The position numbers and the translations under genes were made by a program. Under the pieces are notes generated by a model. The model saw only the letters and a program-made list of their open reading frames with translations, was not told where the DNA came from and ran no database searches. Shown piece by piece: positions 1,175-39,366 of a stretch of 64,000 bases of DNA. Source of the DNA: Minisyncoccota bacterium (lineage in GTDB: Bacteria; Patescibacteriota; Minisyncoccia; Phycocordibacterales; PALSA-1337); contig JAGOVB010000002.1 in the NCBI GenBank assembly GCA_018060945.1, positions 975-64,974 of the forward strand. Direction: 5' to 3'. Each line of letters begins with the position of its first letter. Within the stretch, counting starts at the first letter, position 1.

Positions 1175-1645
1175 TTGAAAATTCACATTTTGACCCACGG
1201 CGACAAAGAAGCAGGTGTGGACCCTTGCCTTACCCAAACCGGTGTGCGGCAGATTGAGAGCGTCACCCTGCCATCCACTGTTTTTCAGATCATCTCCGGA
1301 ACCGGCAACCGTTTCCAACAATCTGCAGAAATTGTCCGCAGGAGACTGGGCCACGAAAAAGACACCAGGTTTTCCCCCCTTTGCGGTTCTGCCGACAGTG
1401 GAGAAAAGGCCGAGTCGGGTTTCCAAGTGATTCTGGCAAATGGCAGAGTGGTGCCACTAGGCGACTATATCGGCCTCATTGGTACTCCGGGAGTTAACGT
1501 CAATGCCTTTCTGAATGCACTGCCCGAAAACACCCTACTCATTGCAGGACGAGAACTGCTGGGTGCGCTCGGGTACAAGGATGCTCTGTCCGGCGTTGTT
1601 TACGGCTATGATGGAGAAACTGTTTATGCAGGCATTCTGACGTGA
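1175..1645 (+). CDS. Small histidine-phosphatase-superfamily (SixA/PGAM-like) protein, divergent
   Basis: 156-aa ORF in a GC-rich patch. It has MKIHILTHGD (RHG motif with R replaced by T), LTQTG, and SGTGNRFQQSAEI resembling S..RA.QTA. The second catalytic His region reads IAGRE (no His). Its size is like SixA. Confidence 0.35.
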   Translation: MKIHILTHGDKEAGVDPCLTQTGVRQIESVTLPSTVFQIISGTGNRFQQSAEIVRRRLGHEKDTRFSPLCGSADSGEKAESGFQVILANGRVVPLGDYIGLIGTPGVNVNAFLNALPENTLLIAGRELLGALGYKDALSGVVYGYDGETVYAGILT

Positions 1646-1699
1646 ACAAATTTGTCTTCAGCACCCCCAACTGCGCTGCCACTTCGGCGGCGCGGTTTT

Positions 1700-9069: not shown

Positions 9070-10769
9070 CGGTCGGGAGTTATTTCATAGTAGTTTATCA
9101 GAAATTTTGTAATATCGATAAACGGGTTGGTCAGTGTCTCAGAAGCGTACTGCGTATTCTTTGGATAGACTTGGTACAAAAAGACTATGTACTGTGGGTC
9201 ATATGCTGGGAAATATCCAAAGAATGAGTGCAGATACCTATCGGTATAATACCCTCCATTGACCGGATCCGCAATCTGCGCAGTTCCGGTCTTTGCCGCG
9301 ATACTATAGTGCTCCATTTTGACTGTTCCCTGACGGAGTGCTTTGTCTACTACTTCGACGAGCATTTTGGTAACGGTTTCAGTTGTTTCCGGTTTCAGTA
9401 CTTGTTTTGGTTTTTCATACTCAACAGTTTCTGGGATACCACTATCGTGCTCAATCGTATTTACGAGGTGTGGAGTGATGAGCTTACCTCCATTTGCAAG
9501 CACTGACAGTGCCCGTGTGGTCGCAATTGGACTCATTGATATACCTTGCCCATATCCCATCGTAATATGCTCGATATCGCGTGTACCATCGAGGTTACGT
9601 GAAATACCTCTCGTTTCATTTGGCTGATCGATACCAGTAAACTCTCCGAAACCAAATGATCTAAAGTAGTTTGATATGTTTTTGTTCCCAGTTTTTTGTA
9701 CGATAAAAGCAATACCGATGTTGAGTGACTGACTGAGCACCTCCTGCATCGGTACTACCCCACGAGCTTTTCCATCATAGTTTGAAATCTTCTTTTGATC
9801 GACCGTGATGGTTCCCTTGTCATTGTATGTTGTATTTGCACTGATCGATCCAGTATCGATACCGACTGCCATAGTGAGTGGCTTGATGATCGATCCCATT
9901 TCATACGCACTTTCGACAAGTGGGTTTGAAAATACTTTTGGATTTTTCTCTCCTGACACATCATTTGGATTAAAGTTTGGCAATGCTGCCATGGCAAGGA
10001 TATCTCCTGTTTTTGGACTCATGACGATGACACCGATCTCATCTGATTGCCATTTTTTGCGAGCATCTGCGATCACTGCTTCGGCATAGTTTTGTACTGA
10101 TGGCTCGAGTGTTGTGACCACATCTCCAGACTCTCCTTTTGAAGTATGTTTAATGCCAGAAAATATTTCAGCAAAGAAATTTCTGAATTGCCCCTTGTCA
10201 TTTCGCACCAGGATATCGTCATACTGTCGTTCCAAACCATAGCGACCACGATACTCAGTACCTTGAAATCCCATAAGACCGATCGCATGTGCTGCCAAAC
10301 TCTGTGCTGGGTATGTGCGCCATGCATCACGATAGACGATGACACCCGGTATTTTCATCTTTTGGATTTCTTCACCTGTTTTTTCTTCGAGTCGTTTACT
10401 CAGCTCTTCAAATGGGTCATCTTTTTTGGCTGCTTTTTCTATAAACTCATTTTTGTTGAGTGCCACAAACTGACGCAACCGCTCATATGTCTCTGCGGCA
10501 TCATCGAGATCTTTTGGACTGATCGCGAGCGAAACTCCCTCTTGGATGGTCGCAGCACTTACTCGAGTACCGTCTTTTGAAGTAAAAAATATACTCCCTC
10601 GGTCAAATAGTGGTGCGCTACGGCGCTCATACTGACGGTTTGCACGTTCGGCAAATTCTTTGCCATTGATTATCTGGACATGATAAAGTTTTGCAACCAA
10701 AACTAGGGCAGCAAAAATCACACATGCAATCACGATCCTAATTCTAATTGAATAGTTATCTGATTTCAT
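9066..10769 (-). CDS. ftsI: Penicillin-binding protein, FtsI-type transpeptidase
   Basis: It has the SxxK motif (GSIIKP), SNY and KTGTA, plus an N-terminal TM helix. The start is placed at MKSDNY (10769); the ORF track extends to 10847 and overlaps ftsL. Confidence 0.8.
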   Translation of the reverse strand: MKSDNYSIRIRIVIACVIFAALVLVAKLYHVQIINGKEFAERANRQYERRSAPLFDRGSIFFTSKDGTRVSAATIQEGVSLAISPKDLDDAAETYERLRQFVALNKNEFIEKAAKKDDPFEELSKRLEEKTGEEIQKMKIPGVIVYRDAWRTYPAQSLAAHAIGLMGFQGTEYRGRYGLERQYDDILVRNDKGQFRNFFAEIFSGIKHTSKGESGDVVTTLEPSVQNYAEAVIADARKKWQSDEIGVIVMSPKTGDILAMAALPNFNPNDVSGEKNPKVFSNPLVESAYEMGSIIKPLTMAVGIDTGSISANTTYNDKGTITVDQKKISNYDGKARGVVPMQEVLSQSLNIGIAFIVQKTGNKNISNYFRSFGFGEFTGIDQPNETRGISRNLDGTRDIEHITMGYGQGISMSPIATTRALSVLANGGKLITPHLVNTIEHDSGIPETVEYEKPKQVLKPETTETVTKMLVEVVDKALRQGTVKMEHYSIAAKTGTAQIADPVNGGYYTDRYLHSFFGYFPAYDPQYIVFLYQVYPKNTQYASETLTNPFIDITKFLINYYEITPDR

Positions 10770-11091
10770 TAGAAGTTGTACGAGCAACTCCCTGTGCCTT
10801 CTTTGAAATGTATACAGCTGATGTCGGTTCAGAAAAACCAAGCTCAACTGCGGTAGCGAGGGTAACTGAGTTCTTTAATGAAAAATACTGCGCTTCGAGC
10901 ATACCGATGGCTCCGCTTTTATTTCGATTTACTTTGAGCAATGCTTCTCGAGCTAGTATGTTGTGTACTGTCGTGTGGACAAGGCCAGCGTAGGTGAGAA
11001 CAAGTGAAAGAATGAGAAAAGCAAATACATAAAAAAGATGCTCTCTGTATGAGTTTACTCCGGATATTGTATTTTGAATTGCTTTTGTCAT
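10756..11091 (-). CDS. FtsL-like small bitopic cell-division protein
   Basis: 111 aa with a single TM helix. It lies between rsmH and ftsI, so the call is positional. Confidence 0.5.
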   Translation of the reverse strand: MTKAIQNTISGVNSYREHLFYVFAFLILSLVLTYAGLVHTTVHNILAREALLKVNRNKSGAIGMLEAQYFSLKNSVTLATAVELGFSEPTSAVYISKKAQGVARTTSNEIR

Positions 11092-29379: not shown

Positions 29380-29516
29380 CGTATCCTGCGGTAGCGATTT
29401 CGATTTTTTGATTGAAGAAGTATATCGTAGTCCACACTGCCATAAGCCCAACAAGAACCAACCCTAGTGCCGAGTTTATGTGCTGCTGCAAAAACTTACT
29501 CTCATGTATGTGCATT

Positions 29517-29876
29517 TTATTTATTGAATATACCTCTCACCATCTCCTTTACTCTCGCTCCGCTGCGGCGGACAAAAGAAATATCTTTCTCTTTTGTCTC
29601 TGCTAGCTTGCGCTGAGCCTCGTCACGGACTTCGTCGATCGCAGCATAGAGATCAGAAGATTCTTTGCTCACATACAAATCCTTGTGGTGTGAGTATGCT
29701 CTGATTTCTGCACGGAAAATATCTCCGTGTTTGTGGTGATCGCTTGTCTTCGCAACTTCCACATGTACAATCGTATCCTGCTCCAAAAAACGTTCCAATG
29801 TACCTACTTTCTTTTCGATATATTCAGTCACAGCTGCTGAACTTGGAAAACCTGTTGTTTTGATTTGAATGTTCAT
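29517..29876 (-). CDS. hpf: Ribosome hibernation factor (HPF/RaiA/YfiA family)
   Basis: 119 aa counted from MNIQIKTTG, with S30AE-type motifs (YIEKKVGTLERF, DLYAAIDEV). Confidence 0.8.
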   Translation of the reverse strand: MNIQIKTTGFPSSAAVTEYIEKKVGTLERFLEQDTIVHVEVAKTSDHHKHGDIFRAEIRAYSHHKDLYVSKESSDLYAAIDEVRDEAQRKLAETKEKDISFVRRSGARVKEMVRGIFNK

Positions 29877-29934
29877 GTTGTAAAGGTTATCTAATAATAC
29901 TTTTATTATACTAGATTTTTTGCATTGCTGTCTG

Positions 29935-30147
29935 TTAGTAATCAACAGATATGATCTTTGATGGATGATGGTGTCCACTCACTATCCTCACCGCTCCTTT
30001 GTGCATTTCTCGCATAATTTCGAGGATTCTTGTATTTGCCATATTCCTCTCTGCAGGTTCGCGAAGGCTGATCTCGTAGTAGTCGTCACGGATCTTTTTG
30101 ACAACTTCTTTCTTTGCCTCAGTTATTACCTTCACTTTTATATACAT
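29935..30147 (-). CDS. DUF167 (YggU-like) protein
   Basis: 70 aa whose pattern IKVKV..EAKK......ISLREPAERNMAN..ILEI........VRIVSG...P.K matches YggU. Confidence 0.6.
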   Translation of the reverse strand: MYIKVKVITEAKKEVVKKIRDDYYEISLREPAERNMANTRILEIMREMHKGAVRIVSGHHHPSKIISVDY

Positions 30148-30187
30148 ATTTGCTATGATACCAACGTTCCTTTAAAAAGAACAATAT

Positions 30188-30262
30188 TCCCCTGTAGCTC
30201 AGCGGTAGAGCAATCGCCTGTTAAGCGATTGGTCGTAGGTTCGATCCCTACCGGGGGAGCCA
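30188..30262 (+). tRNA. tRNA-Asn (anticodon GUU), CCA encoded
   Basis: Cloverleaf: acceptor TCCCCTG/CGGGGGA, D arm GCTC-AGCGGTA-GAGC, anticodon stem ATCGC/GCGAT with loop CTGTTAA, T arm GTAGG-TTCGATC-CCTAC, then GCCA. Confidence 0.9.
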
Positions 30263-30526
30263 GTTAGGACAGCCTGATAATTGAAGGATCAAATTATATG
30301 GTTTTCTTAGTGTAAATTCTAGGTTTTTAGCGGAAACAGTCGGGTTCTGAAGTAAGTAATTCAAAATTGCTCGTTTTTCCATTGGTTCAGAACTCTCAAA
30401 GAGTGTTTTTATTCTGCGTGATAGATTTAGTATTGTAGAAATCTGGATATGATACTCATGGTCTGCTTTGGTATGCTCTCCAAGTTCAATGTTGAGTCGG
30501 TATTGTCGATCCTTCAATTCTTGCAA
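30248..30526 (-). pseudogene. 5'-truncated remnant of a large serine recombinase (C-terminal region only)
   Basis: The 92-aa ORF (..EHTKADHEYHIQISTILNLSRRIKTLFESSEPMEKRAILNYLLQNPTVSAKNLEFTLRKPYN) resembles, from memory, the C-terminal helical region of large serine recombinases. No catalytic domain is present. The ORF reads 15 nt into the tRNA-Asn 3' end. Confidence 0.45.
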
Positions 30527-30552
30527 CTTCTTGTCATAGTCATCCTTAGTAA

Positions 30553-30571
30553 TTCACCTATCAAGACAAGC
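30553..30571 (+). repeat. Weak copy of the island repeat (core CACCTATCAA)
   Basis: TTCACCTATCAAGACAAGC lies at the truncation point of the recombinase remnant. Confidence 0.3.
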
Positions 30572-30578
30572 CAAATAA

Positions 30579-31133
30579 TTAGTACTTACTCAAATCAAAC
30601 CATTTATTCTCAAATCCTGCCTTTTTCAGGATACGCATTACAAAATCTGTTTTACCTCCAATGTATTCACCTTTTCCTGTCGGGTCTCTTTGTAGTAGCT
30701 CTTTCTTTAACTCACCATAAGCATCCCTATCTTCAAGGTGTTCACGCAAATAATCTCTAAACAAAATTTGTCGTTCTAAAAAGCTTCCTTTATCACCATA
30801 ACAAATTGAGAGATGAAATTCTGTTGGCACACCTTTTCTCAGAAAATGTCGTTCGGTTGATACGTCCTTACTAGATACATATCCAAGAGTTGCCAAAGGC
30901 TCGATAACTGATTCAATATTTTCAGAAGAAGGTATCTCAACTGCAATATCGATTATTGGTTTTGAAGCGAGTCCTGTGATAGAAGTGCTTCCAATATGCT
31001 CGATTCTAGCTATCTTGTCACCAAGCAAGCTCTTGATCCTCTCTGCTTCCTGTTCAAAAATCTCAGGCCATTTCGGATCATATTCTCTTACTTCTAGATG
31101 CGATATATCGACTGTTTCGATCTTTTGTTCCAT
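30579..31133 (-). CDS. GrpB-family nucleotidyltransferase-fold protein
   Basis: It has IEHIGSTSITGLASKPIIDI and matches over the full GrpB length. The start is at ATG 31133, with TATAAT 6 nt upstream. Confidence 0.75.
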   Translation of the reverse strand: MEQKIETVDISHLEVREYDPKWPEIFEQEAERIKSLLGDKIARIEHIGSTSITGLASKPIIDIAVEIPSSENIESVIEPLATLGYVSSKDVSTERHFLRKGVPTEFHLSICYGDKGSFLERQILFRDYLREHLEDRDAYGELKKELLQRDPTGKGEYIGGKTDFVMRILKKAGFENKWFDLSKY

Positions 31134-31207
31134 ATGCAAATTATATAAAAATCAACAGATAAAAGATACTGCACCTCAAAAGCTCTGACTTTTGATATAC
31201 TTACTTC

Positions 31208-31753
31208 ATGAATTTAACCATACCTGTTAGAGACAATATTGAACTAAAGACACTTCAGATATCTGACGCTCAAGCTTTTTTTGATATTACAAAAAAGAAT
31301 AATAAATACTTGCGAGAATGGCTCGGTTGGTTGGATGACGATAAAACTGCGACTGATACTGAAAAGTATATAATCGAAAGCAATAAACGATTTGAGAACA
31401 AAGAAGGATTGGACCTTGGGATTTTTGCTGACGGTCTACAGATTGGTGGTATTGGTCTATTCCCTTGGGACACTGCAAACAAAAAGACTTCTGTTGCATA
31501 TTGGCTCACTGAAGAATCTCAAGGTAAAGGAATTATGACTGATTGTCTCAAGAAGGTTATTGAGTATGCATTTATTGAAATGGGGTTAAATCGCATTGAA
31601 GTCACCTGTGCAATTGGCAATACAAAGAGTTCAGCCCTTCCTAAAAAGCTCGGTTTCACTCTTGAGGGTATTTCTCGCGAAGGGAGCTGGCTCTATGACC
31701 ATTTTGTGGATTTGGAAGTGTATAGTTTGTTAGCAAAAGAGTGGAAAAGATAA
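31208..31753 (+). CDS. GNAT N-acetyltransferase (RimJ/RimL-like)
   Basis: 181 aa with the acetyl-CoA motif SQGKGIMTDCLKKVIEYAF and NTKSSALPKKLGF. Confidence 0.85.
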   Translation: MNLTIPVRDNIELKTLQISDAQAFFDITKKNNKYLREWLGWLDDDKTATDTEKYIIESNKRFENKEGLDLGIFADGLQIGGIGLFPWDTANKKTSVAYWLTEESQGKGIMTDCLKKVIEYAFIEMGLNRIEVTCAIGNTKSSALPKKLGFTLEGISREGSWLYDHFVDLEVYSLLAKEWKR

Positions 31754-31758
31754 AACAA

Positions 31759-32247
31759 ATGAAAAATATCTTAGAAATCGAACGAAAATTCATCCTCTCA
31801 AAACTCCCCGATGTAAGTGGAATCATACCCATGGAGTATGAGAGATACTTTCTCGAGCGAGGTAGTGGTATTGAAACGAGAGTTCAGAAAAAAGGAAATA
31901 AATATACATACGAAAAGAAGATCGAGAAAGAAGGTGTTGGTCGGGAGCGTGCAGAAGAACGAGAAATAAGTGAGGAGGAATTTAATACATTAAAGAAAAC
32001 TGCCTCAAAAGCGATCCTCCGAACTCGCTACGACATATCCCCTCTCATTGCAATCCAGGCATACCACGGTGACTACGAAGGACTTATTCGATATGAAGTA
32101 GAGTTTAATACAGTCGAGGAAGCACAAGCTTTTGTTCCCGAATCATGGCTTGGAAAAGAAATTATTGACTCCCCTATTGGGCGTGATGGAAAGCTGCTAG
32201 ATTTGAATCGAGAAGAGTTTTTACTTGAGCTGAAGAAGTTTTTGTAA
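31759..32247 (+). CDS. CYTH-domain (triphosphate tunnel metalloenzyme) protein
   Basis: It has the N-terminal EIERKF signature. The start is placed at ATG 31759. Confidence 0.7.
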   Translation: MKNILEIERKFILSKLPDVSGIIPMEYERYFLERGSGIETRVQKKGNKYTYEKKIEKEGVGRERAEEREISEEEFNTLKKTASKAILRTRYDISPLIAIQAYHGDYEGLIRYEVEFNTVEEAQAFVPESWLGKEIIDSPIGRDGKLLDLNREEFLLELKKFL

Positions 32248-32268
32248 TCAAACCTCACCTATCAACGC
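32246..32268 (+). repeat. Island repeat copy A
   Basis: AATCAAACCTCACCTATCAACGC, 23/23 identical to copies B and C. It overlaps the CYTH stop codon. Confidence 0.8.
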
Positions 32269-32325
32269 ATAAAATCACCAACTTGCGGAAAACATCAGTT
32301 TAGGCTAGTATTTAGATATCACCAC

Positions 32326-32366
32326 GAAAAAGCTCCTATGAGGCCCGTCCTCATAGGGCCTTTTTC
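32326..32366. terminator. Bidirectional intrinsic terminator
   Basis: The stem CCTATGAGG/CCTCATAGG is flanked by an A-run and a T-run and overlaps the NYN stop codon. Confidence 0.55.
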
Positions 32367-32875
32367 TTTGTATATGTGTACTCAACCTTGTTTCTTACTG
32401 CATCTAGAAAAATCAGGAACTTTTCAGTTGGAGTATTGATTTTCTTTAATAATGCAGAGTATCTTTTTTGATCAGGAATGATGACTGCCTTAAGTTTCTT
32501 TTGATCTCTTAAATATTCAGCGAGACAATAGAAATCACCATCCCCTGAAATGATTATTGCCTTTCCATAATTAGGAAGCTCAATCATCGAGTGCAATACG
32601 AGCTCAGCATCACAGTTCCCTTTTGTTGTTCCATCTTTATACATGAGCGTTGGTTTAAAAATAACAATGTAGCCATCTTCCTGCATTTTCTTGTATATTT
32701 GCTGATTGCCTTCCATATATCCCATAAAGAGATACGCCTTCTCTACCGCAAATTTGTCTTTCAAATATATTCTTAGTTTCGAGAAATCAATCTTCCAACC
32801 TTGGTTTTTAATACTAAGGTAGAGATTCTGGCTATCTATGAAAGCAAAGTTTGGTAGTTCATTTTCCATGTACAT
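32351..32875 (-). CDS. NYN/LabA-like ribonuclease domain protein, paralog 2
   Basis: 174 aa with FIDSQNL, KGNCDAEL and IISGDGDF. TGATATAAT lies 5 nt upstream of the ATG. Confidence 0.72.
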   Translation of the reverse strand: MYMENELPNFAFIDSQNLYLSIKNQGWKIDFSKLRIYLKDKFAVEKAYLFMGYMEGNQQIYKKMQEDGYIVIFKPTLMYKDGTTKGNCDAELVLHSMIELPNYGKAIIISGDGDFYCLAEYLRDQKKLKAVIIPDQKRYSALLKKINTPTEKFLIFLDAVRNKVEYTYTKKKAL

Positions 32876-32906
32876 ACAAGATTATATCAAAAGCATATCT
32901 CTAGTA

Positions 32907-32935
32907 AATCAAACCTCACCTATCAACGCGAGCAT
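32907..32935 (+). repeat. Island repeat copy B
   Basis: AATCAAACCTCACCTATCAACGCGAGCAT, 29/29 identical to copy C. Confidence 0.85.
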
Positions 32936-32968
32936 AGCATTTTGCAGAATTTCTGATATACTCATATT

Positions 32969-33331
32969 ATGAATATTGATCACATTGGTTTTGCAGTTTC
33001 AAACTTTAAAAAGAGTAAAGATTTTTATACCAGCACTCTATCCCCACTTGGTTTAACAATCGTTGGTGAAGGTGATACATGGGCAATGATGGGTAAAACT
33101 AAATGTGATCTATGGTTTGGTGAAATTGAAGGAGAAAATCCAAAACCAATCCATTTAGCATTCGTTGCTGAAAATCATGAACAAGTAGACGCATTTTATG
33201 CAAAAGCTATGGAAGCTGGTGCTACTGATAACGGAAAGCCGGGACTAACTCCTGAATACGGAGAAAGTTACTATGCCGCCTTTGTTATTGATATCAATGG
33301 ACATAATCTAGAAGCTGTCTGTAGAACATAA
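32969..33331 (+). CDS. VOC/glyoxalase-family protein
   Basis: 120 aa with IDHIGFAVSN, HLAF and GHNLEAV. Confidence 0.8.
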   Translation: MNIDHIGFAVSNFKKSKDFYTSTLSPLGLTIVGEGDTWAMMGKTKCDLWFGEIEGENPKPIHLAFVAENHEQVDAFYAKAMEAGATDNGKPGLTPEYGESYYAAFVIDINGHNLEAVCRT

Positions 33332-33334
33332 AAC

Positions 33335-33739
33335 ATGAAACCTGACCCAAGACTCCATCACTACTGCCAAAATATTAAAACCGGATATTTGAAGGATGTA
33401 ATTGAAATGTATTCCCTCCTCGATTTTGATATCGTATACAATCCGGGAGAACAAGCTGGCTGGATCATGGTTGGTCAGAAACAATTACGTTTTGCAATAC
33501 AAATTACTCAAGTCGATGATACTCCAATAGCTGATTTAGATGTAAAGAAAAGAACTCATATTGCTTTCCTTTCAGACAATCCGAAAGAGGTAGTTGAAAA
33601 GATTAGAACTTGGGCTGAAACGAAAGGATTGGAATTTAGACAAGGTGGTTGGTCTGATCGAGAACTCTATTTTGATTTACCTGATGTATTCATCAACTTT
33701 GTTGTAGAGGTAATGCATACTTCGATTGAAGAAGAATAA
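33335..33739 (+). CDS. Hypothetical protein, possibly a VOC-like fold
   Basis: 134 aa with THIAFLSDNPKEVVEKI and a weak beta-alpha-beta-beta-beta pattern. Confidence 0.35.
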   Translation: MKPDPRLHHYCQNIKTGYLKDVIEMYSLLDFDIVYNPGEQAGWIMVGQKQLRFAIQITQVDDTPIADLDVKKRTHIAFLSDNPKEVVEKIRTWAETKGLEFRQGGWSDRELYFDLPDVFINFVVEVMHTSIEEE

Positions 33740-33743
33740 ATGT

Positions 33744-34268
33744 ATGAAAAAGATTTACATAACTGGAGTTTCAGGGACTGGCAAAACAACAATTTATGAA
33801 GAGTTAAAGAAACGAGGATTTACTGCGATCAGTTTAGATGAAACAGATGACTTGTGTTGTTGGGCAAGTAAAAAAACTAAAGAAAAAGTAGAGCGACAAG
33901 TAGAACTTAATATAGAATTTACCAGTACACACGACTGGATTTGTGATATTGAGTATTTGAAAAAGCTTTTAGCCAAAGAGACTGATAAAGATATGGTATT
34001 TGTCTTGGGAGTTGCTTCTAATCAAAAGGAATTTCTGACTATGTTTGATAAGGTACTAGTTCTTCAGTGTAAACCTGAAACCTTTCTACACAGACTTACA
34101 CACAGAACTAATAATGAGTTTGGTAAAGATGAAACTGTACGAAGTGCGGTTCTTGGGTGGTATCAAGAGTTTGAAAGTGAACTTCTATTACGAGGAGCGA
34201 TTTCTATCGATACGGACAAGCCCCTAAACGAAGTCGTGGAAGAGGTACTAAGGCAAGCTGGGATATAA
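33744..34268 (+). CDS. P-loop NTPase / small-molecule kinase-like protein
   Basis: It has the Walker A motif ITGVSGTGKTT at the N-terminus and is the size of AAA_18/shikimate-kinase-like proteins. Confidence 0.6.
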   Translation: MKKIYITGVSGTGKTTIYEELKKRGFTAISLDETDDLCCWASKKTKEKVERQVELNIEFTSTHDWICDIEYLKKLLAKETDKDMVFVLGVASNQKEFLTMFDKVLVLQCKPETFLHRLTHRTNNEFGKDETVRSAVLGWYQEFESELLLRGAISIDTDKPLNEVVEEVLRQAGI

Positions 34269-34296
34269 ATCAAACCTCACCTATCAACGCGAGCAT
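34268..34296 (+). repeat. Island repeat copy C
   Basis: AATCAAACCTCACCTATCAACGCGAGCAT. It overlaps the last base of the kinase stop codon. Confidence 0.85.
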
Positions 34297-34340
34297 CCTT
34301 GCTTTTTTCGAACAAAAGCATATAATACATGTATCACTAT

Positions 34341-34389
34341 GAAAAAGACCCTTACGTAGATACGTCTACGTCGGGGGTTTTTTCTTTTA
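34341..34389. terminator. Bidirectional intrinsic terminator
   Basis: ACGTAGA-TACG-TCTACGT extended by CCC/GGG, flanked by GAAAAAG and TTTTTTCTTTT. Confidence 0.55.
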
Positions 34390-34869
34390 TAGCTTTCTTG
34401 AGAACTTGTGGTACTGCTCATTGAGAAATGTGATTTCAATATTCTTGTTTCTGAGCAAGAAGGAACACTTTTTCTTGTCTGGAGCAATTACTCTTTCGAG
34501 AGCAGAATTACTATTAAGAAATTCAACGAGGCAACCAAAGTCTCCATCACCTGTAATCAATACACACTTCTCATACGCTTTAGTGTAGAAATCTGACGTT
34601 GTCTTTAAAACGAGCTCAGCATCACAATTCCCTTTTATAACTCCACTCACAGAAATAGTTTGCTTGAAGATCAGGATAAAACCACACTCTTGTAGATGTT
34701 GATAAAATTTCACTCGATCAGGAACTAAGCCGATGAATAAATATACTTGGTCTGGTGTGTACTTCTGCCGTAACCATCCTTTAAATTTTTTATAATCAAT
34801 TTCAAAACCCAGCTCTTTGGCACTGCGATATAGATTATTTCCGTCAATATAAATATTAGTTTTACTCAT
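34387..34869 (-). CDS. NYN/LabA-like ribonuclease domain protein, paralog 3
   Basis: It has YIDGNNL, KGNCDAEL and LITGDGDF. The start is placed at MSKTNIY (34869) so that it clears repeat copy D. Confidence 0.72.
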   Translation of the reverse strand: MSKTNIYIDGNNLYRSAKELGFEIDYKKFKGWLRQKYTPDQVYLFIGLVPDRVKFYQHLQECGFILIFKQTISVSGVIKGNCDAELVLKTTSDFYTKAYEKCVLITGDGDFGCLVEFLNSNSALERVIAPDKKKCSFLLRNKNIEITFLNEQYHKFSRKL

Positions 34870-34892
34870 GTAAATGCATTTTATCATAGAAG

Positions 34893-34921
34893 AACCAACC
34901 CTCACCTGTCAAAGCGAGCAT
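34893..34921 (+). repeat. Island repeat copy D
   Basis: AACCAACCCTCACCTGTCAAAGCGAGCAT, 25/29 identical to copy B. Confidence 0.7.
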
Positions 34922-35015
34922 TAAAAAGTAGGCAAAAATCGCTATTGTTGTCTTTATTGACAATGTGTGATAAGATGTGTCTTGGTAAAACACAAACCCC
35001 AACCCCCTTATTAGG

Positions 35016-35573
35016 ATGGATAAAGACCTTTTAAAGAAACTTCTGACTCAGAATACTTTGGTGATCGATGGTGGTGTGGAGAGTGCGGTCGGAGCCTACA
35101 TCTTCGATTCCCTTCAAGAGCTCAAGAGTCGTGGTAATCCTCCGATAGAACTCACCATCGCATCAAACGGTGGAGACGTCACTGTTGGCCTCGATATCTA
35201 CGACATGCTCGCGACCTACCCCGGAGTCATCAATGGAACCGTCGTTGGGTATGCTCGAAGTATGGGAGTAATCATTCTCCAGGCATGCAACCGACGTCTC
35301 GCTCATCAACACGCCAGGCTCCTGATTCACCACGTCTCAAGACGCCAGGTGAACCTCGATATCCTGGTATCACAAAAGCGGCTCGCAAAGACGGTCACAG
35401 AAATGCAACGACAACAACAGTTTCTGTACCGTATCCTTGCCGGGAAAACCAAACGAACTATCCCGCAGATTCGCAAAGCATGCTCCCTCGACAAAGACAT
35501 GTCAGCAGAGGAAGCGCTCGTATTCGGACTGATTGATGAGATCACTCCAGTGCGGACGAAGTCACCCACCTGA
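35016..35573 (+). CDS. ClpP-family (S14) serine protease-like protein, GC-rich
   Basis: 185 aa colinear with ClpP: SNGGDVTVGLDIYDML, the catalytic Ser in ARSMG, the His in LLIHH and the Asp in SLDKD. Confidence 0.65.
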   Translation: MDKDLLKKLLTQNTLVIDGGVESAVGAYIFDSLQELKSRGNPPIELTIASNGGDVTVGLDIYDMLATYPGVINGTVVGYARSMGVIILQACNRRLAHQHARLLIHHVSRRQVNLDILVSQKRLAKTVTEMQRQQQFLYRILAGKTKRTIPQIRKACSLDKDMSAEEALVFGLIDEITPVRTKSPT

Positions 35574-35592
35574 ATGATAGTTCAACTCACAC

Positions 35593-35634
35593 AGCCACCA
35601 ATGTCGAAAGACCTCTTGGTGGCTTTTGTCTTTT
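35593..35634 (+). terminator. Intrinsic terminator
   Basis: Stem AGCCACCAA/TTGGTGGCT followed by TTTTGTCTTTT. Confidence 0.6.
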
Positions 35635-35635
35635 A

Positions 35636-35664
35636 CCTCAAAACCCACCTATCAAAGCGAGTAC
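35636..35664 (+). repeat. Island repeat copy E (diverged)
   Basis: CCTCAAAACCCACCTATCAAAGCGAGTAC. Confidence 0.55.
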
Positions 35665-35736
35665 TATTTGACATATGTAAGTATTCATTATAGAATTCTT
35701 TTTGAACAATAACCACCACACCTGAAAGATCTTCAA

Positions 35737-36099
35737 ATGGACTTCATTCACAACTACCTATTCGTCATTGCAGGATGGTTCCTGATTGGACTCATCGCCA
35801 AAGGGATCATCCGGGGAAACAACATTGAGTTGCTCCGACGAGCCGATCTGAAGAATCGTAAGACCAAGATGAACGTCTACTGGGCGCTTCGCTGGGAGCG
35901 TGTAGCTTTCCTCCTCGGCCCCATCGGACTCTACCAAGTCGTGTACCGGAGTGTTCGCACTGATACTTCGTTTAGTCTGTTTCAGTTTTCCTTGCGCCCG
36001 CATGGTTTGGGTGTACGTTTGCCATTTGTCCCGACACACTATGACGGGAGGCTCATCGACACTCATGGTAAGAAGCACATGTCGGAAAGTCCTCAATGA
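35737..36099 (+). CDS. GC-rich hypothetical membrane protein
   Basis: 120 aa with an N-terminal TM helix. G/C-ending codons are enriched in this frame relative to the antisense ORF. Confidence 0.4.
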   Translation: MDFIHNYLFVIAGWFLIGLIAKGIIRGNNIELLRRADLKNRKTKMNVYWALRWERVAFLLGPIGLYQVVYRSVRTDTSFSLFQFSLRPHGLGVRLPFVPTHYDGRLIDTHGKKHMSESPQ

Positions 36100-36158
36100 T
36101 TCGTGACACCACCACCTCCCCGCGAGACAGCCATCGCTCGGGCGGTGGTTTTCTTTTG

Positions 36159-36180
36159 CCTCAACCCTGATCTATCAGAA
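36159..36180 (+). repeat. Weak copy of the island repeat at the island edge
   Basis: CCTCAACCCTGATCTATCAGAA. Confidence 0.25.
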
Positions 36181-37581
36181 AAGTTTTTTCCAAATAATTA
36201 CTGCAGTAAATACAATGTAGAAAATAGATGCAAACACCATGAAGATATTCGTTACCCATCCCGGCCTCAATTCTTTTGGCAATTTAAAATTATTTAAATA
36301 TATTAAAACAGGAGAATATATTGCCATTGTAAAACCACCGAGTACCGCACTAATAGTTAAAAGCAGAAGTGGCTGTTCCAATGACAAGAGTGAGGCACTA
36401 ATTATTATAATCCCAATAATTAGAGAGTAGTACAACTTATTCAGAGGAATATCTTTAATCCATTTCAACTTTCTTTGAAATGGACCTATGCGAGAATTTA
36501 CATACAAAATATCAGAAACAATTCTTGTAAAAGCGTCGATTACTGTCCACATCACAGAGAACAACATTAGGAACGCCATTACCAAAAACAAATTAAAGCC
36601 AATGGGTCCCCAGTTCTCACCAAAAATATGAGCTTGTACCACGGCCACATTTAATCCTTCAGGAATCAGACCGTGTGGTACCAAAACAACATAGGCGTTG
36701 ACACTAAGTAGTATTAGAGTCACCAGACCCAGAAACCAAAAGATGATTCCTTGATCAATTCTGATAAAGCGCATCCATTTCTTCCATCGAGCCATGTGCT
36801 CGGGAGTCGGATCAAATCGATACCCTTGATAGGAAACGGCTTCTGTTTTGCCTGTAATTGGATTCAATATCTGCCCGACATGTTTACCCATACCTACTTG
36901 TTTATCGCGATACCAAAGCGAAACACAAAGATTTAATAGTCCTCCAGCACCAGCAAATACTACAGCGCCCATCAAAACAGACAGATCTATCCCTTTCGGC
37001 ACATACCCAAAATTTAACAACCCAGAAAAAACCATTTTTAAATCACCCAACGTCAAAGAAAGATAACTTGAAATAACTAGCAAAACAAAAAAAGTGGGCA
37101 CAATAATTTTAAGAGAACGCTCGAGTATTTGATATGCAGATTTCCCAATAAATGTAAGAATTGCAACCAGAACAAGACTCGCTATTGCCCACCATAGATA
37201 ATGTCCAAAGCCAAAGAGTTCACTCAGTGTGGTCCCTATCGCAGCAGCCCAACCAGGCCAAACATAGAGTAAACCTGCAGAAAAAAGCCAAAAAGGAGCA
37301 AACCATTTAAAGACACGAGAAGAAGAGGTAAAAAAACTTTCGCCTGTCGCCAGTGCGTGTCGTGCAACCTCTTGATTTATAAAATACTGAAAAGTAATAC
37401 CTAAAATGGCTGCCCACAAAATATCTAGTCCGTGTTTCGTGACTAAATGTGGCCACATAATGAGTTCGCCTGTGCCTATGGCCAATCCCATCGTCACAAC
37501 ACCCACACCTAGCGCTTTACTCCAATGTGGTGGATTTGGAAGTTCTCTTGTCTCCATTTCTCCATAATTGTTGTTTGTCAT
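36175..37581 (-). CDS. NRAMP-family-like divalent cation transporter (divergent)
   Basis: 468 aa with about 11 TM helices. The N-terminal region GLAIGTGELIMWP...QYFINQEVARHALATGE resembles Nramp-related transporters. TGTTACAAT lies 6 nt upstream of the ATG. Confidence 0.55.
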   Translation of the reverse strand: MTNNNYGEMETRELPNPPHWSKALGVGVVTMGLAIGTGELIMWPHLVTKHGLDILWAAILGITFQYFINQEVARHALATGESFFTSSSRVFKWFAPFWLFSAGLLYVWPGWAAAIGTTLSELFGFGHYLWWAIASLVLVAILTFIGKSAYQILERSLKIIVPTFFVLLVISSYLSLTLGDLKMVFSGLLNFGYVPKGIDLSVLMGAVVFAGAGGLLNLCVSLWYRDKQVGMGKHVGQILNPITGKTEAVSYQGYRFDPTPEHMARWKKWMRFIRIDQGIIFWFLGLVTLILLSVNAYVVLVPHGLIPEGLNVAVVQAHIFGENWGPIGFNLFLVMAFLMLFSVMWTVIDAFTRIVSDILYVNSRIGPFQRKLKWIKDIPLNKLYYSLIIGIIIISASLLSLEQPLLLLTISAVLGGFTMAIYSPVLIYLNNFKLPKELRPGWVTNIFMVFASIFYIVFTAVIIWKKLF

Positions 37582-37652
37582 GAACTAATTGTAACAGCAT
37601 TAAATTATATTTGACAAACATTGATATGTGTAATACTATATAAAAAGGCAAT

Positions 37653-37985
37653 ATGAAATACCCCATACTGTTTTGGACAAGTCTCATGTTTCTTTTGTGG
37701 GTCGTCTGGAAATTCCTCCTTCGGAACGAGCGGCGACCACACAGGACAAACTATCTCGCAGTGATGAGTCGGGAACGCTGGGAAACCAGTGGGACCATCC
37801 GTCGCCGTCTTGAGAAGATTTACGGTGGATGGATCAACGAGTACGAGTTTAACTTGTACATGCGCCAGCTGGTGGACGAAGGATTTGTCGTCCAAAAGGA
37901 AACCAGCCGAGGGTGCCTATTTCGGGCAAAAGCAAATTACATTCCCCAGCTCAAAGACCTTCAGCCCTCTTTTCAAAGGGCCTGA
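37653..37985 (+). CDS. GC-rich small protein: N-terminal TM helix plus a winged-helix-like domain
   Basis: 110 aa. A TTGACA-17-TACTAT promoter lies upstream. The pattern is L.VM..E.W.T...I...LE...G......F..YM..LV.EGFV. Confidence 0.4.
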   Translation: MKYPILFWTSLMFLLWVVWKFLLRNERRPHRTNYLAVMSRERWETSGTIRRRLEKIYGGWINEYEFNLYMRQLVDEGFVVQKETSRGCLFRAKANYIPQLKDLQPSFQRA

Positions 37986-38001
37986 TGTATTCGGTAAGTG
38001 C

Positions 38002-38032
38002 AACCCCGCTCTCGAGAGCGGGGTTTTGTTTT
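38002..38032 (+). terminator. Intrinsic terminator
   Basis: AACCCCGCTCTCGAGAGCGGGGTT followed by TTGTTTT. Confidence 0.65.
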
Positions 38033-38087
38033 AAAATTTGTTACCGATAGTCGTCACTCAGTCAGGAAATTTTGATATACTGTATGT

Positions 38088-38480
38088 ATGCAAAAAATAC
38101 TTTTAATTACTTCACTGCTGACGATCACTGTAGGTGTATTTATGATATTGGGAGGAATATGGGGAATTTTCTTTACCTATAAAAACGTTGCTAGAGAAAG
38201 TATTACAACGCCTCCTGATGCATCCATTCCTTCGACCAAAGTTCGAGGACCTCTTACCTTAAAAGCGCAGTCTGACATCATACGACAACATGTCCTCCAC
38301 ACAACAGAAGGAAAAACATACGCACAAATGCCACAAACAGAAGCTCGTAATATATGGATCACCGCAACAACACTCATCACAGCGCTGAATCTAGGGATTG
38401 TCAGCTATGCACTCTCTGGAATTGTGATGTTTGTGGGAGTACTATCCATCTTGATCGGAATAATTTTGTTTATTAAGTAA
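38088..38480 (+). CDS. Hypothetical membrane protein
   Basis: 130 aa with TM helices at both ends. TGATATACT lies 6 nt upstream of the ATG. Confidence 0.45.
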   Translation: MQKILLITSLLTITVGVFMILGGIWGIFFTYKNVARESITTPPDASIPSTKVRGPLTLKAQSDIIRQHVLHTTEGKTYAQMPQTEARNIWITATTLITALNLGIVSYALSGIVMFVGVLSILIGIILFIK

Positions 38481-38485
38481 AAAAG

Positions 38486-38959
38486 ATGAATAATAAAATT
38501 AAACTCACAATCTCTCTCATCGCTCCCCAAGCAGCAGGACTCATCGGCTCAATATTTACAGCATCATCAGTCACCGGCTGGTACAGCACTGTCACTCGAC
38601 CAGAGCTCGCTCCACCAAACTGGATTTTTGGTCCCGTTTGGACAACGCTCTTTGTACTCATGGGCATAGCCCTGTTTCTCGTCTGGAAAAAAGAAGACTC
38701 ACAAAAAAAGAAAGTAAAATTAGCGCTGCAACTTTTTGTGGCTCAGCTCGTACTCAACACCTTGTGGTCTGTCATATTCTTTGGTCTTCAGTCACCAGGA
38801 TGGGCTTTTGTTGAAATTATCTTCCTCTGGATATCGATCGCCCTTACCATAACTGTATTTACTCCCATTTCACGACTGGCAGCATGGCTCCTCGTTCCCT
38901 ATTTGGCGTGGGTTTCATTTGCTGCATATCTTAATTATTCAATCTGGATGCTAAACTAA
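38486..38959 (+). CDS. tspO: TspO/MBR tryptophan-rich sensory protein
   Basis: 157 aa with 5 TM helices and the motifs WY..L..P...PP.W.FGPVWT.L, LN.LWS..FF and VPYL.WV.FA..LN. Confidence 0.85.
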   Translation: MNNKIKLTISLIAPQAAGLIGSIFTASSVTGWYSTVTRPELAPPNWIFGPVWTTLFVLMGIALFLVWKKEDSQKKKVKLALQLFVAQLVLNTLWSVIFFGLQSPGWAFVEIIFLWISIALTITVFTPISRLAAWLLVPYLAWVSFAAYLNYSIWMLN

Positions 38960-38970
38960 TATAAAAACAT

Positions 38971-39366
38971 ATGAAAGGATACACTGAAAATATTGAAAAA
39001 CTATCACTTGAGAATGAAAACTTTAGAGAAGTACTCTATACAGACAAAAAGAGCCAACTTGTCTTGATGTCACTCCTTGCGGGAGAAGAAATAGGAGAAG
39101 AGGTCCATGATGTCGACCAGTTTTTGCGTGTAGAAAAAGGAACAGGAACTGCAATCATAAATGATGTCTCACATGAAATCAGTGACGGCAGTATCATCCT
39201 CGTACCAGCTGGATCAAAACACAATGTGACAAATACTGGCTCTGAATCCATGAAGCTCTATACCCTCTACATGCCTCCACATCACAAAGACGGAACTATT
39301 CATAAGACCAAAACAGACGCTGTAGCTGATACTGCTGATGAGTTTGATGGAAAGACGACAGAATAG
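38971..39366 (+). CDS. Cupin-domain protein
   Basis: 131 aa with GEEIGEEVH and ILVPAGSKHNVTNTG. Confidence 0.75.
   Translation: MKGYTENIEKLSLENENFREVLYTDKKSQLVLMSLLAGEEIGEEVHDVDQFLRVEKGTGTAIINDVSHEISDGSIILVPAGSKHNVTNTGSESMKLYTLYMPPHHKDGTIHKTKTDAVADTADEFDGKTTE

Follow-up and report, generated by a model that had tools for sequence, protein, structure and literature searches.

The interval between the tRNA-Asn gene and tspO is best explained as a chromosomal array of gene cassettes belonging to a single clade of the ultra-small Saccharibacteria, in which a short directional repeat bounds the cassettes and the repeat junctions act as cassette exchange sites, probably read by a recombinase. For this explanation as a whole we estimate a probability of about 0.6. 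The repeat is specific to one locus and conserved across lineages, the edges of homology between arrays fall at it, and the cassettes differ in order between species and, for some of them, are raised in identity. The same-locus arrays, the edges at the repeat and the shuffled order support the suggestion, made in a preliminary description of this DNA, of a cassette array distinct from integrons.

Within the 64-kb window (the whole stretch of DNA analysed), the array is anchored proximally by tRNA-Asn (GTT), found on the plus strand at 30188..30262. The synteny of PriA, Def, Fmt, HPF and DUF167 upstream of it is conserved in all relatives. The first conserved gene on the distal side is tspO (38486..38959, plus strand), where synteny with the relatives S, T, L045 and L052 resumes. 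The island had been described as an accessory region of about 6 kb beside the tRNA; its position holds, but its extent does not, as the variable interval continues past that edge to 38485. The additional part (36175..38480) contains an Nramp transporter gene on the minus strand and two small ORFs, shows no recognisable repeat, and is missing from S and T. The modules measure 0.4-2.4 kb and hold one to five genes in either orientation, with promoter-like and terminator-like sites at most of their ends. They form the mosaic of base composition noted earlier, with a GC content of 0.50-0.55 in the ClpP and membrane modules versus 0.33-0.39 in the others. No GC-skew switch is seen at the locus, which is thus not the terminus.

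The junction repeat has the consensus TCAAMCCTCACCTATCAA-N-GCGAGCAT, a non-palindromic block of 27 bp with one fixed direction. Copies c0 to c6 and their E-values were obtained from an nhmmer profile search, whose matches span 32248-32269 for c1, 32909-32935 for c2, 34270-34296 for c3, 34896-34921 for c4 and 35637-35662 for c5. The repeat is confined to 30554-36178 of the window and to the plus strand, and its core CACCTATCAA occurs five times, always on the plus strand and within 30555-35646, and nowhere else in the 64 kb. Altogether, the window contains five clear copies, a left-truncated one (c0), a decayed one (c6) and an extra decayed copy at about 31160-31180. The full-length copy c2 (32908..32935) and copy c3 (34269..34296), both with E=2.5e-8, are identical over 31 nt; the exact 29-mer is found at 32907-32935 and 34268-34296, with 0 matches expected by chance. 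Copy c3 overlaps the stop codon of the kinase gene and is followed by a shortened flank that we call type B. The right-truncated c1 (32247..32269, E=1.7e-5) overlaps the CYTH stop codon. In c4 (34894..34921, E=1.2e-6), the variant CACCTGTCAA creates a consensus TTGACA -35 element on the minus strand before the second NYN gene, and the diverged c5 (35637..35664, E=1.7e-5) is followed by TTGACA-17-TAGAAT. We therefore recover what had been reported for these copies, namely the 29/29 identity of two of them, the counts of 23/23 and 25/29 for others, the diverged copy near 35636..35664, the overlaps of 2 nt and 1 nt with the CYTH and kinase stop codons, and the common orientation.

The weaker matches proposed at the two edges fare differently. 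Copy c0 (30554..30571, plus strand, TCACCTATCAAGACAAGC) reaches E=0.046 and is the ortholog of the intact repeat preceding the GrpB cassette in S and T, whereas c6 (36160..36178, plus strand, CTCAACCCTGATCTATCAG) is not significant alone (E=8). It is backed by a 34-nt match (88%), covering the repeat and a terminator tail, to a copy in S, and shares the variant TATCAGA with the last repeat of that array. The additional decayed copy (about 31160..31180, plus strand, CACCTCAA..AAGCTCTGAC) lies between GrpB and GNAT and aligns with the intact repeat at T 5582; GrpB homology stops at this point in the window, S and T alike.

Over 22 copies, the edges of the repeat are sharp, with the information rising from 0.35 to 1.56 bits at position 2 and falling from 0.73 to 0.19 after position 28. 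The flanking promoters and terminators are not conserved between copies, and the repeat itself retains about 95% identity across species, compared to 70-76% for their core DNA. Its direction is constant irrespective of gene direction and the spacing between repeat and following start codon is anywhere from 0 to about 118 nt, so it is not tied to the expression of one gene.

The first cassette of the window is a single reverse GrpB gene (30579..31139, minus strand), common to S and T (78% in each), followed by a GNAT and CYTH-like cassette (31208..32247, plus strand), in which the CYTH call is backed by matches to PDB 2FBL/3TYP (E~3e-11). Some cassettes vary internally, which counts against the reading, as CYTH occurs with or without GNAT; in L052, CYTH without GNAT forms its own cassette adjoining tspO. 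The first NYN cassette (32281..32875, minus strand) consists of an NYN gene (32351-32875) and a bidirectional terminator (32334-32358). The next one (32969..34268, plus strand) combines a VOC/glyoxalase gene, an unknown 134-aa ORF and an AAA_18 P-loop kinase gene, and is followed by the second NYN cassette (34297..34893, minus strand). The ClpP-like cassette (35016..35573, plus strand, GC about 0.5) ends with a terminator-like hairpin, and the last cassette (35737..36099, plus strand, GC about 0.55), with a terminator at 36129-36150, encodes a 120-aa ORF that matches no family. The earlier gene assignments (GrpB, GNAT, CYTH, two NYN, AAA_18 kinase and ClpP-like) stand, except that only one of the two proposed VOC-like genes finds support.

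At least four further lineages of Saccharibacteria (S, T, V and L052) have this repeat between tRNA-Asn and tspO, oriented as in the window and with 1 to 8 clear copies in each. S has eight copies, T has eight clear and two weak ones, and V has one perfect and one weak copy distal to a large serine recombinase (LSR) element; the L052 contig begins inside a variant copy. Nor is the repeat scattered: no copy occurs elsewhere in the window, and in the 371-kb contig of S its strict pattern matches nothing outside the array. Alignment of the orthologous loci of the window, S and T, whose core nucleotide identity is 70-76%, reveals that gene content varies in repeat-bounded units and that homologous cassettes (GrpB, NYN and a 132-aa membrane protein) differ in array position and neighbours. 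GrpB, for instance, precedes NYN in the window and follows it in T. The homology blocks around GrpB correspond to 30554-31180 of the window and T 4961-5587, and to S 10400-11022 and T 4954-5578, while that around the 132-aa gene matches S 5453-6005 with T 1075-1621; the left edge of the 132-aa cassette, 62 nt away from a repeat, counts against the reading. The second NYN cassette, taken together with c3 and c4 (34271-34921), has a 79% match in T (2054-2699), and the modules flanking it on the left and on the right are unrelated. In total, 14 of 24 homology edges are no more than 12 nt away from the boundary of a significant repeat. Random placement gives a mean of 1.0, and none of 100,000 random trials reached 14; five further edges coincide with decayed copies. 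Two cassettes are 94.4% and 91.2% identical between S and T compared to 71.4% for the flanking core, which indicates that single cassettes have probably been transferred recently between species.

GAGCAT(C/T)GCAGTCCAGTTGAC is common to three junctions of S, two internal ones and that at the tRNA, so that the tRNA 3' end (...GAGCA) stands where a repeat would otherwise be. None of the conserved block extends across the apparent exchange point (...GAGCA|T), and it thus acts like the half of an attachment site that a cassette would carry. We propose that the junction sequence would be the place of cassette excision and insertion: recombination between two junctions would release a cassette, presumably as a circle, and this circle or other incoming DNA could be inserted by recombining with any resident junction. 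The crossover would probably be at ...GAGCA|T, with exchange within the repeat. A dedicated enzyme would carry this out, most likely a recombinase whose gene lies at another genomic site or on a mobile element, and LSRs of the kind populating the same tRNA locus are candidate readers of the repeat. Cutting and insertion at the junctions would account for the repeat-bounded cassettes, their species-varying order and their recent movement one at a time.

The recombinase remnant described earlier between the tRNA and c0 proves to be real. It spans 30251..30565 on the minus strand and encodes the C-terminal 105 aa (residues 394-498) of a 498-aa LSR, with 97% amino acid identity to the intact gene of L036. 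Its stop codon reaches into the 3' end of the tRNA, and at its other end the gene breaks off precisely at c0, via the microhomology ..C.C.(T)ATCAAG. Judging from the sequence, this stump is the remnant of a separate LSR element targeting the tRNA 3' end and situated between tRNA and array; the element would have integrated in front of the array and later been deleted up to the first junction. Two points speak against the proposed exchange: the window contains no other recombinase gene and none is found in the neighbourhood of the S and T arrays, and LSR and repeat occur separately in S and U (below). No recombinase of the window or these two arrays could be tied to the repeat.

As a less likely but live rival, the repeat, together with neighbouring pieces of terminator and promoter, may be only a patch of homology. 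General homologous recombination would then delete, insert and swap the genes between such stretches, for example after natural transformation and without a dedicated recombinase, as in the shuffling of promoter/stem-loop (PeSL) cassettes; the repeat would persist since the cassettes retaining it spread. The junction regions indeed share more than 27 nt, several pairs agreeing over 42 nt (95%), 75 nt (85%) or 93 nt (83%), and with 75-93 nt at 83-85% a RecA-type exchange could suffice without such an enzyme. The near-identical strain L002 departs from the window just after the stop codon of the VOC gene (33333), not at a repeat, which counts against the main reading, and shares with the window a 3.7-kb block with zero SNPs, a pattern that clearly points to ordinary homologous recombination at the locus. 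Moreover, the repeat sits between terminators and promoters, like the motif of the T4-type phage cassettes, every combination is present at its polymorphic positions 6 and 20, which fits exchange inside the repeat, and the window has the stump as its only recombinase sequence. However, the best-conserved piece is a sharp-edged block that is neither promoter nor terminator, and homologous recombination alone needs neither a fixed sequence nor sharp edges. The length of the block, 27 nt, is just at the minimum for RecA-type exchange, and the first cassette of S, which abuts the tRNA, has only about 7 nt of left-side similarity to the repeat, leaving no two-sided homology there.

Tandem accretion as in staphylococcal SCC composite islands appears improbable: in this view, an LSR attachment site would have the repeat as its conserved half (P arm), and the cassettes would be recombinase-less or decayed elements, comparable to ccr-less cassettes, moved in tandem at tRNA-Asn by an LSR in cis or in trans. 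LSR half-sites measure about 27 bp, as does the block, which flanks the apparent exchange point on one side, and three LSR lineages lie directly 3' of tRNA-Asn in relatives, in addition to the stump. The sole perfect repeat of V has the same direction and is separated from the tRNA junction by 6.9 kb, beyond the LSR element, and in S the repeat with the native tRNA flank resembles a hybrid attR. Together with the type B flank, which recurs, the site is 56 bp long and has a 7-bp motif (AAACCTC/GAGGTTT) inverted around GAGCAT; an inverted repeat of at least 7 bp centred within 2 nt of this position arises in 0.9% of shuffles. Yet the conserved right half is absent from most repeats, and neither the similarity between repeat and tRNA 3' end beyond GAGCAT (365 of 5000 shuffles as good) nor that between the type B flank and the LSR-side arm of V or the window is significant. 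S combines eight repeats and an intact tRNA junction with no LSR at the locus, while U has an LSR and no repeat within 10 kb. No LSR of the family ends with the peptide that the repeat would encode, and canonical LSRs are not known to join attP-like with attR-like sites. Less probable still is a regulatory or insulating role, in which the repeat, travelling with accessory genes, would be bound by a DNA-binding protein of this locus or would weakly terminate minus-strand transcription, with the border position unconnected to recombination. The reverse complement contains a near-consensus -35 (TTGATA), which in c4 becomes a perfect TTGACA 18 nt from TATGAT, and is flagged as a minimal hairpin with a T-rich tail; there is also a small imperfect dyad (CTCACC-N6-GGCGAG). 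In agreement with the earlier view that the repeat is not a hairpin, its fold is weak (-2.3 kcal/mol, z-scores of -2.3 to +0.9 across contexts). Read either way, it also comes after proper terminators, and it is oriented by the array rather than by the genes; such a role leaves the edges at the repeat and the reshuffling unaccounted for.

Among known systems, tRNA-linked islands with tandem tyrosine integrases share the tRNA 3' end position, serial accretion and direct repeats between units; their repeats, however, copy the tRNA 3' end and their units carry or carried integrases, whereas here tRNA similarity is limited to GAGCA(T) and units are single small genes. SCC islands (CcrAB/CcrC LSRs, rlmH 3' end) are similarly hotspots at the 3' end of a housekeeping gene, with tandem elements, same-direction direct repeats, many units without recombinase and LSR genes at the same hotspot in relatives, but our units are far smaller, the repeat copies the target gene only over GAGCA(T), and the LSRs belong to separate elements that do not consistently co-occur with it. 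Xer-dependent modules (IMEX at dif, Acinetobacter pdif) resemble the array in their site of about 28 bp and small modules without internal recombinase; the repeat lacks the 11-6-11 inverted-arm layout, its direction is uniform whereas pdif sites alternate, and the locus differs from dif in being away from the terminus. PeSL cassettes of T4-type phages are small ORFs flanked by a conserved intergenic motif of about 100 bp, a functional promoter and stem-loop acting through homologous recombination (PMC2839356, PMC4122927). As here, the motif lies between terminator and promoter and bounds insertions, deletions and replacements, and a circle-mediated shuffling model fits both; recombination at such motifs was shown to make mini-circles, and the same paper states that it knew of none in cellular organisms (PMC2839356). 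The present block differs in being 27 bp long, neither promoter nor stem-loop, and bound to one locus of a cellular chromosome.

A further likeness is to sedentary chromosomal integrons and CALINs (attC clusters without integrase), which have in common with this array a fixed chromosomal locus, small and compositionally mixed cassettes, one conserved site per cassette in a common direction with its conserved block on one side of the exchange point, and decay of the distal sites. The cassette contents here, with toxin-antitoxin, GNAT, glyoxalase/VOC and unknown genes, are of the sort reported from chromosomal integrons. An integron proper is ruled out: the 27-bp site forms no attC-type imperfect hairpin, no intI is found in the window or adjoining the S and T arrays, both strands are used, most cassettes have their own promoter-like and terminator-like sites, and the array is anchored at a tRNA gene in a saccharibacterium. 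Taken together, the array appears to be an undescribed kind of gene-capture site that resembles an integron.

Repeat searches in the window returned five copies of a junction sequence, all in the same orientation, and the core of this sequence, CACCTATCAA, is found five times within 30555-35646, always on the plus strand, with no other occurrence on either strand of the 64 kb. The two identical 29-mers (AATCAAACCTCACCTATCAACGCGAGCAT) reported in the preliminary description were found exactly at 32907 and 34268; as no matches are expected in shuffled sequences, a chance origin of the repeat is rejected. An nhmmer profile built from 20 copies retrieved copies c1 to c5 with E-values from 1.7e-5 down to 2.5e-8 (c2, 32909-32935; c3, 34270-34296; c4, 34896-34921; c5, 35637-35662), the left-truncated copy c0 (30554-30571) with an E-value of 0.046, and c6 (36160-36178) at E=8 only. 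Together with its terminator tail, c6 matches a repeat copy of the related Saccharibacteria genome S over 34 nt at 88%, and it has a TATCAGA variant in common with the last repeat of S. Alignment of the window with a second relative, T, disclosed an extra decayed copy at about 31160-31180, between GrpB and GNAT. Confined to a single locus and devoid of a hairpin, the repeat is not a dispersed palindromic unit of the REP/MITE type. A partial match inside murG of the related strain contig L002 (CTATCAAGGCGAGCA, E=0.006) lies within coding sequence and was judged a chance match or pseudo-site.

The repeat is not an assembly artefact, since the same array is present in independent assemblies. The NCBI metagenome contig JAHZTO010000620.1 is 100% identical to the window. 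Two Logan contigs, L005 (window 30232-32934) and L006 (31834-32934), both stop one base short of the end of c2; c2 and c3 being identical over 31 nt, we attribute these ends to the assembly breaking at the repeat, not to biology, and other assemblies are likely to break there as well. Short-read assemblies and MAGs may therefore contain fewer such arrays than exist, or only pieces of them.

The information content across 22 copies delimits a conserved block of 27 nt with sharp edges. Positions 2-19 (TCAAMCCTCACCTATCAA) carry 1.15 to 2.0 bits each, position 20 is free (C, G or A), and positions 21-28 (GCGAGCAT) carry 0.7-1.6 bits, with less than 0.75 bits in the left flank and less than 0.6 bits in the right one. 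As previously described, the block lacks internal dyad symmetry: it has no stable fold and no inverted-repeat partner, only the weak imperfect dyad CTCACC-N6-GGCGAG (-2.3 kcal/mol), and as single-stranded DNA the repeat folds with -1.5 to -5 kcal/mol (z-scores of -2.35 to +0.9). Rfam models matched nothing but the tRNA in 29500-39000, the repeat thus belonging to no known RNA family. Its reverse complement contains TTGATA, resembling the CTTGATA nick core of rolling-circle replicons; the base ahead of TTGATA is the variable position, and Pfam scans revealed no Rep/HUH gene.

The direction of the repeat is set by the array, independently of gene direction. In forward cassettes (the gene modules between junction repeats), a hairpin with a T-run usually lies directly 5' of the repeat and promoter-like sequences lie 3' of it, often with an extended -10 element 6-8 nt ahead of the ATG. 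Reverse cassettes are also bounded by the repeat at both ends, with a terminator 3' of the left repeat and a promoter 5' of the right one. Between 0 and about 118 nt separate the repeat from the next start codon. A right flank of type A (TCGCAGTCCAGTTGAC), which contains a -35 hexamer, is found in S and in the related contig L028, and also after the tRNA 3' end of S, while type B (CCATCTGTTTTAAGAGGTTTTTTCGAAC) is found in S, T and the related contig L052, with a shortened version after c3 of the window. Most of the cassette promoter-like sites have the extended -10 form TGnTAnAnT (window 32950-32971 and 34320-34340; T, contig L048, about 1660-1685 and 3310-3335). Their position 6-8 nt from the ATG leaves no space for a Shine-Dalgarno sequence, which suggests that the cassette mRNAs are leaderless or near-leaderless. 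At c4, an A-to-G variant (CACCTGTCAA; window 34883-34912, minus strand) gives a perfect minus-strand TTGACA at 18 nt from TATGAT, just upstream of the start of the second NYN gene (NYN2), where the junction repeat is putatively co-opted as the -35 box.

The gene content of the locus largely agrees with the preliminary description. The tRNA-Asn gene at the start of the island was located at 30188-30262, the GrpB, GNAT, two NYN, AAA_18 kinase and ClpP-like genes were all upheld, and the CYTH assignment is backed by PDB entries 2FBL and 3TYP (E~3e-11). One of the two proposed VOC-like genes was confirmed, and the second ORF found no support. The mosaic in base composition is also real, with GC fractions of 0.33-0.39 versus 0.50-0.55. 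The cassettes of the window comprise GrpB, GNAT/CYTH, NYN, VOC, kinase and ClpP-like units, three of seven being on the minus strand, and promoter-like and terminator-like sites were located within cassettes. S carries a zeta toxin with a small partner, DUF1905, a gene group with a thioredoxin-motif protein (assigned by reading the translation only) and a second GrpB-like gene; T carries Fic, a zeta-like kinase, a DprA-like gene and a Cu-oxidase/MauE/CsoR group. The functions represented include toxin-antitoxin, detoxification, metal-resistance, nuclease and kinase genes. At 36175-37581 (minus strand), where the island edge had been placed, lies a 468-aa metal transporter of the Nramp family (NCBIfam, E=4.6e-89), inside the variable interval and absent at the S and T loci. 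Far from the array, at 158-6512 (minus strand), four successive genes with PEP-utilizers mobile domains, one of them with PPDK_N, form a tandem paralogue cluster.

Only one GTDB species representative carries the repeat, the Candidatus Saccharibacteria MAG L014, whose locus is orthologous to that of the window; the remaining 15 GTDB matches are single chance matches. L014 is the organism designated S, which is also present on a 371-kb JGI contig where the strict repeat pattern is confined to one stretch of 6.5 kb (L024 and L026, contiguous). Further relatives were recruited through homologues of the flanking genes HPF and TspO. T (L048/L049) has eight clear and two weak copies, its left end being the contig end. 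L052 begins within a variant copy and holds CYTH as a single cassette beside tspO, and V (L058) has one perfect (E=9e-10) and one weak copy, both distal to a large serine recombinase (LSR) element. In S, T, V and L052, all copies have the same orientation relative to tRNA-Asn and tspO, and none was found in the fetched flanks of more distant or otherwise-occupied loci (L030-L045, L054, L055 and the related genome U). The nucleotide identity of the core is 70.2% between the window and S, 76.5% between the window and T, and 71.4% between S and T.

Some of these loci carry other insertions. A group I intron (Rfam RF00028, 70 bits, E=5e-17) with a 108-aa HNH-type ORF splits the anticodon loop of tRNA-Asn in S (L026 2980-3303; L014 about 2880-3480) and V (L058 8384-8710), unlike in the window, where this tRNA is intron-less. 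At the left edge of the T array, at the contig end, a 249-aa ORF (L048 50-799, minus strand) with a weak match to rve (DDE integrase core) truncates the left part of a 132-aa cassette and looks IS30-like by its N-terminal sequence. At L048 3853-3935, a right-truncated repeat with its terminator tail is followed about 40 nt further by a second decayed repeat, an arrangement that looks like the scar of a deleted cassette.

Comparing the orthologous loci, gene content varies in repeat-bounded units, as the preliminary description had supposed, and the edges of shared segments cluster at repeats. Different arrays have only a few segments in common, all of them clear. In the window, the NYN2 unit with its two bounding repeats c3 and c4 (34271-34921) corresponds to T 2054-2699 at 79%, with unrelated neighbors on both sides. 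The GrpB unit is homologous in the window, S and T. On the left its homology begins at the repeat; on the right it ends at a repeat that is intact in T (5582) and decayed in S and the window. S and T share the 132-aa membrane-protein unit, whose right edge coincides with the repeat end, and the CYTH homology between the window and L052 stops at the stop codon, which is the repeat start. Altogether, 14 of 24 homology edges are no more than 12 nt away from the boundary of a significant repeat, against 1.0 expected at random; none of 100,000 random trials reached 14, and five of the other 10 edges coincide with decayed repeat copies. The order of cassettes also varies, GrpB being placed before NYN in the window and after it in T. 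Two cassettes are 94.4% and 91.2% identical between S and T versus 71.4% for the flanking core, which indicates that single cassettes have recently been transferred between species.

Strain L002, which matches the window at 98.9% identity across 11 kb, departs from it just past the stop codon of the VOC gene VOC1, at 33333, and not at a repeat. It shows no differences between 29500 and 33162, 1-3% in the core to the left and 7% across the last 170 nt of VOC1, and the independent contig L004 covers just the zero-difference block. We conclude from the SNP pattern and from L004 that homologous recombination between strains is active here and that not all variation respects the repeat. The block of 3.7 kb, which contains the tRNA, a recombinase stump and the first four cassettes, looks like the product of a recent recombinational sweep or of transfer between co-existing strains. 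After VOC1, L002 (1-9540) continues with 121-aa and 90-aa ORFs and then M23 peptidase, GluRS, MurG and FtsW genes, absent from the window and from the S and T flanks; this segment reflects either a rearranged chromosome whose breakpoint lies within the array or chimeric assembly.

The decayed recombinase noted earlier proved to be the stump of an LSR. The segment at 30251-30565 (minus strand), between tRNA-Asn and c0, corresponds to residues 394-498 and is 97% identical to an intact 498-aa gene of the related contig L036, which ends in codons reverse-complementary to the tRNA acceptor end. Its truncation falls exactly at c0, as had been claimed: L036 reads ...TAGTAAT ACTCTCATCAAG TCTC... and the window ...TAGTAAT TCACCTATCAAG ACAAGCC..., and from this point onward the window is homologous to the repeat preceding GrpB in S and T. 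An LSR element therefore formerly stood between the tRNA and the array and was later deleted as far as a repeat, via a short stretch of similarity. Intact LSR genes of at least three lineages lie 3' of the same tRNA-Asn in L036, U, V and L039-43 (L036 2090-3586; L057 10001-11497; L058 6560-8134; L039 7623-9239, also L041-L043), with ORFs that end inside the tRNA. Members of this family occur widely in Patescibacteria, their C-terminal ends typically extending into tRNA genes. The cargo of the LSR elements includes a DpnII-type restriction-modification system, an AAA_15/21 ATPase and HTH_36 genes, and L030-L032 carry a type I restriction-modification system and a CD-NTase gene at the same place.

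The LSR could not be tied to the repeat. The repeat is not a copy of the tRNA-Asn 3' end, with which only GAGCA(T) is common, the rest being matched by 365 of 5000 shuffles. Another reading takes the repeat, in its attP form, to encode the end of an LSR ORF (reverse frame M-L-A-L-I-G-E-V-stop), variable position 20 being a synonymous site. It is rejected, as none of 120 family members ends in this way; inspection of the counts also showed the fourfold sites of that frame to be invariant. Nor does the type B flank align significantly with the LSR-side arm of which it might be a remnant.

The array resembles an integron in consisting of small cassettes, each ending in a conserved putative recombination site, in a single direction. 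However, an integron has an adjacent intI tyrosine recombinase, attI and Pc, whereas the sole recombinase here is the serine-recombinase stump, and no intI/Phage_integrase-type protein was found in the window (Pfam scans of all island ORFs and of larger ORFs elsewhere) or in the S, T and V loci (precomputed annotations). Integron attC sites are imperfect inverted repeats of 57-141 bp (R''-L''/L'-R') that form a hairpin, in contrast to a 27-nt block without stable fold, and integron cassettes are mostly promoterless, co-oriented and driven from Pc, whereas those described here lie on both strands with their own promoter-like sites. The direct repeat of an SCC-type composite island is the 3' core of its target gene, and tRNA-linked tyrosine-integrase islands have tRNA 3'-end repeats and an edge integrase; the array shares only GAGCA(T) with tRNA-Asn and lacks both features of the latter. 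PeSL motifs likewise bound gene insertions, deletions and replacements between relatives, but they consist of a promoter and a terminator stem-loop over about 100 bp, while the conserved block is neither and its flanking signals vary. Xer/dif sites (IMEX, pdif) are of 28 bp with inverted 11-bp arms, a 6-bp spacer and a chromosomal dif at the skew switch. Read as 11-6-11, the consensus has complementary arms at 2 of 11 positions by inspection, its small fold being in another register, and GC skew is negative across the whole window without a switch, so a dif/Xer site at the terminus is rejected. A phage or plasmid origin of the site is rejected too, since INPHARED phages, PLSDB plasmids and IMG/VR gave no match, apart from one high-GC chance match in IMG/VR to a looser pattern. 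The array thus belongs neither to the integrons nor to the tRNA-end-duplicating islands, dif arrays or REP families, and we found no description of arrays of this type in Saccharibacteria or the Candidate Phyla Radiation (CPR) in the literature searched. What is new is the type of site and the host group; cassette arrays as a kind are already known.

The edges at repeats, the varied order and the S-T cassette identity support the cassette-array reading of the preliminary description, with repeat-bounded units that appear to have been mobile both within species and across them. The most likely mechanism would be exchange mediated at the repeat by a site-specific recombinase encoded in trans, as the repeat alone is sharply bounded and strongly conserved in otherwise variable junctions and has no evident role in expression. 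The main competing explanation is general homologous recombination between repeats, resembling the promoter/stem-loop cassettes of T4-type phages (PMC2839356). It draws on the strain-level recombination seen at this locus in the window, L002 and L004, and on the Pfam scans of the window (all island ORFs and larger ORFs elsewhere), which found no recombinase apart from the LSR stump.

The recombinase acting in trans may be a promiscuous LSR, and a specific sub-case would be an SCC-like LSR mechanism, for which the evidence is divided. The conserved block, situated to one side of the apparent exchange point, is similar in length to an LSR half-site, and the type B flank gives a 7-bp inverted motif centered on GAGCAT; in a post hoc test, 0.9% of shuffles have an inverted repeat of at least 7 bp centered within 2 nt of this position. 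The stump in the window and the intact LSRs at the same tRNA in relatives are also in line with this mechanism. Against it, S has the array and an intact tRNA junction with no LSR at the locus, and U has an LSR with no repeat within 10 kb. V gives a mixed picture on whether the repeat is the right end of the LSR element: its perfect copy lies 6.9 kb from the tRNA junction, distal to the element, but has a right flank unlike the native tRNA flank of S. We assign a probability of roughly 40% to the array being a new site-specific gene-capture platform of the CPR, tRNA-anchored, with self-expressed mini-cassettes, an asymmetric 27-bp site with crossover at GAGCA|T, a trans-encoded recombinase other than an integron integrase, and passage of single units between species.

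If this is true, the principle of the cassette array would reach beyond integrons with attC hairpins and IntI, to another site and probably another enzyme. The 27-bp sequence can be used as a probe for further arrays, for circles or empty sites in reads and for the protein that reads it, and it is possibly a landing site for genetic tools in bacteria that are hard to manipulate. Saccharibacteria and other ultra-small episymbionts have tiny genomes, and little is known of the ways in which they acquire and exchange accessory genes. A compact repeat-bounded array, whose cassettes carry their own promoter-like and terminator-like signals and appear to have recently crossed species, would give them a simple route for doing so.
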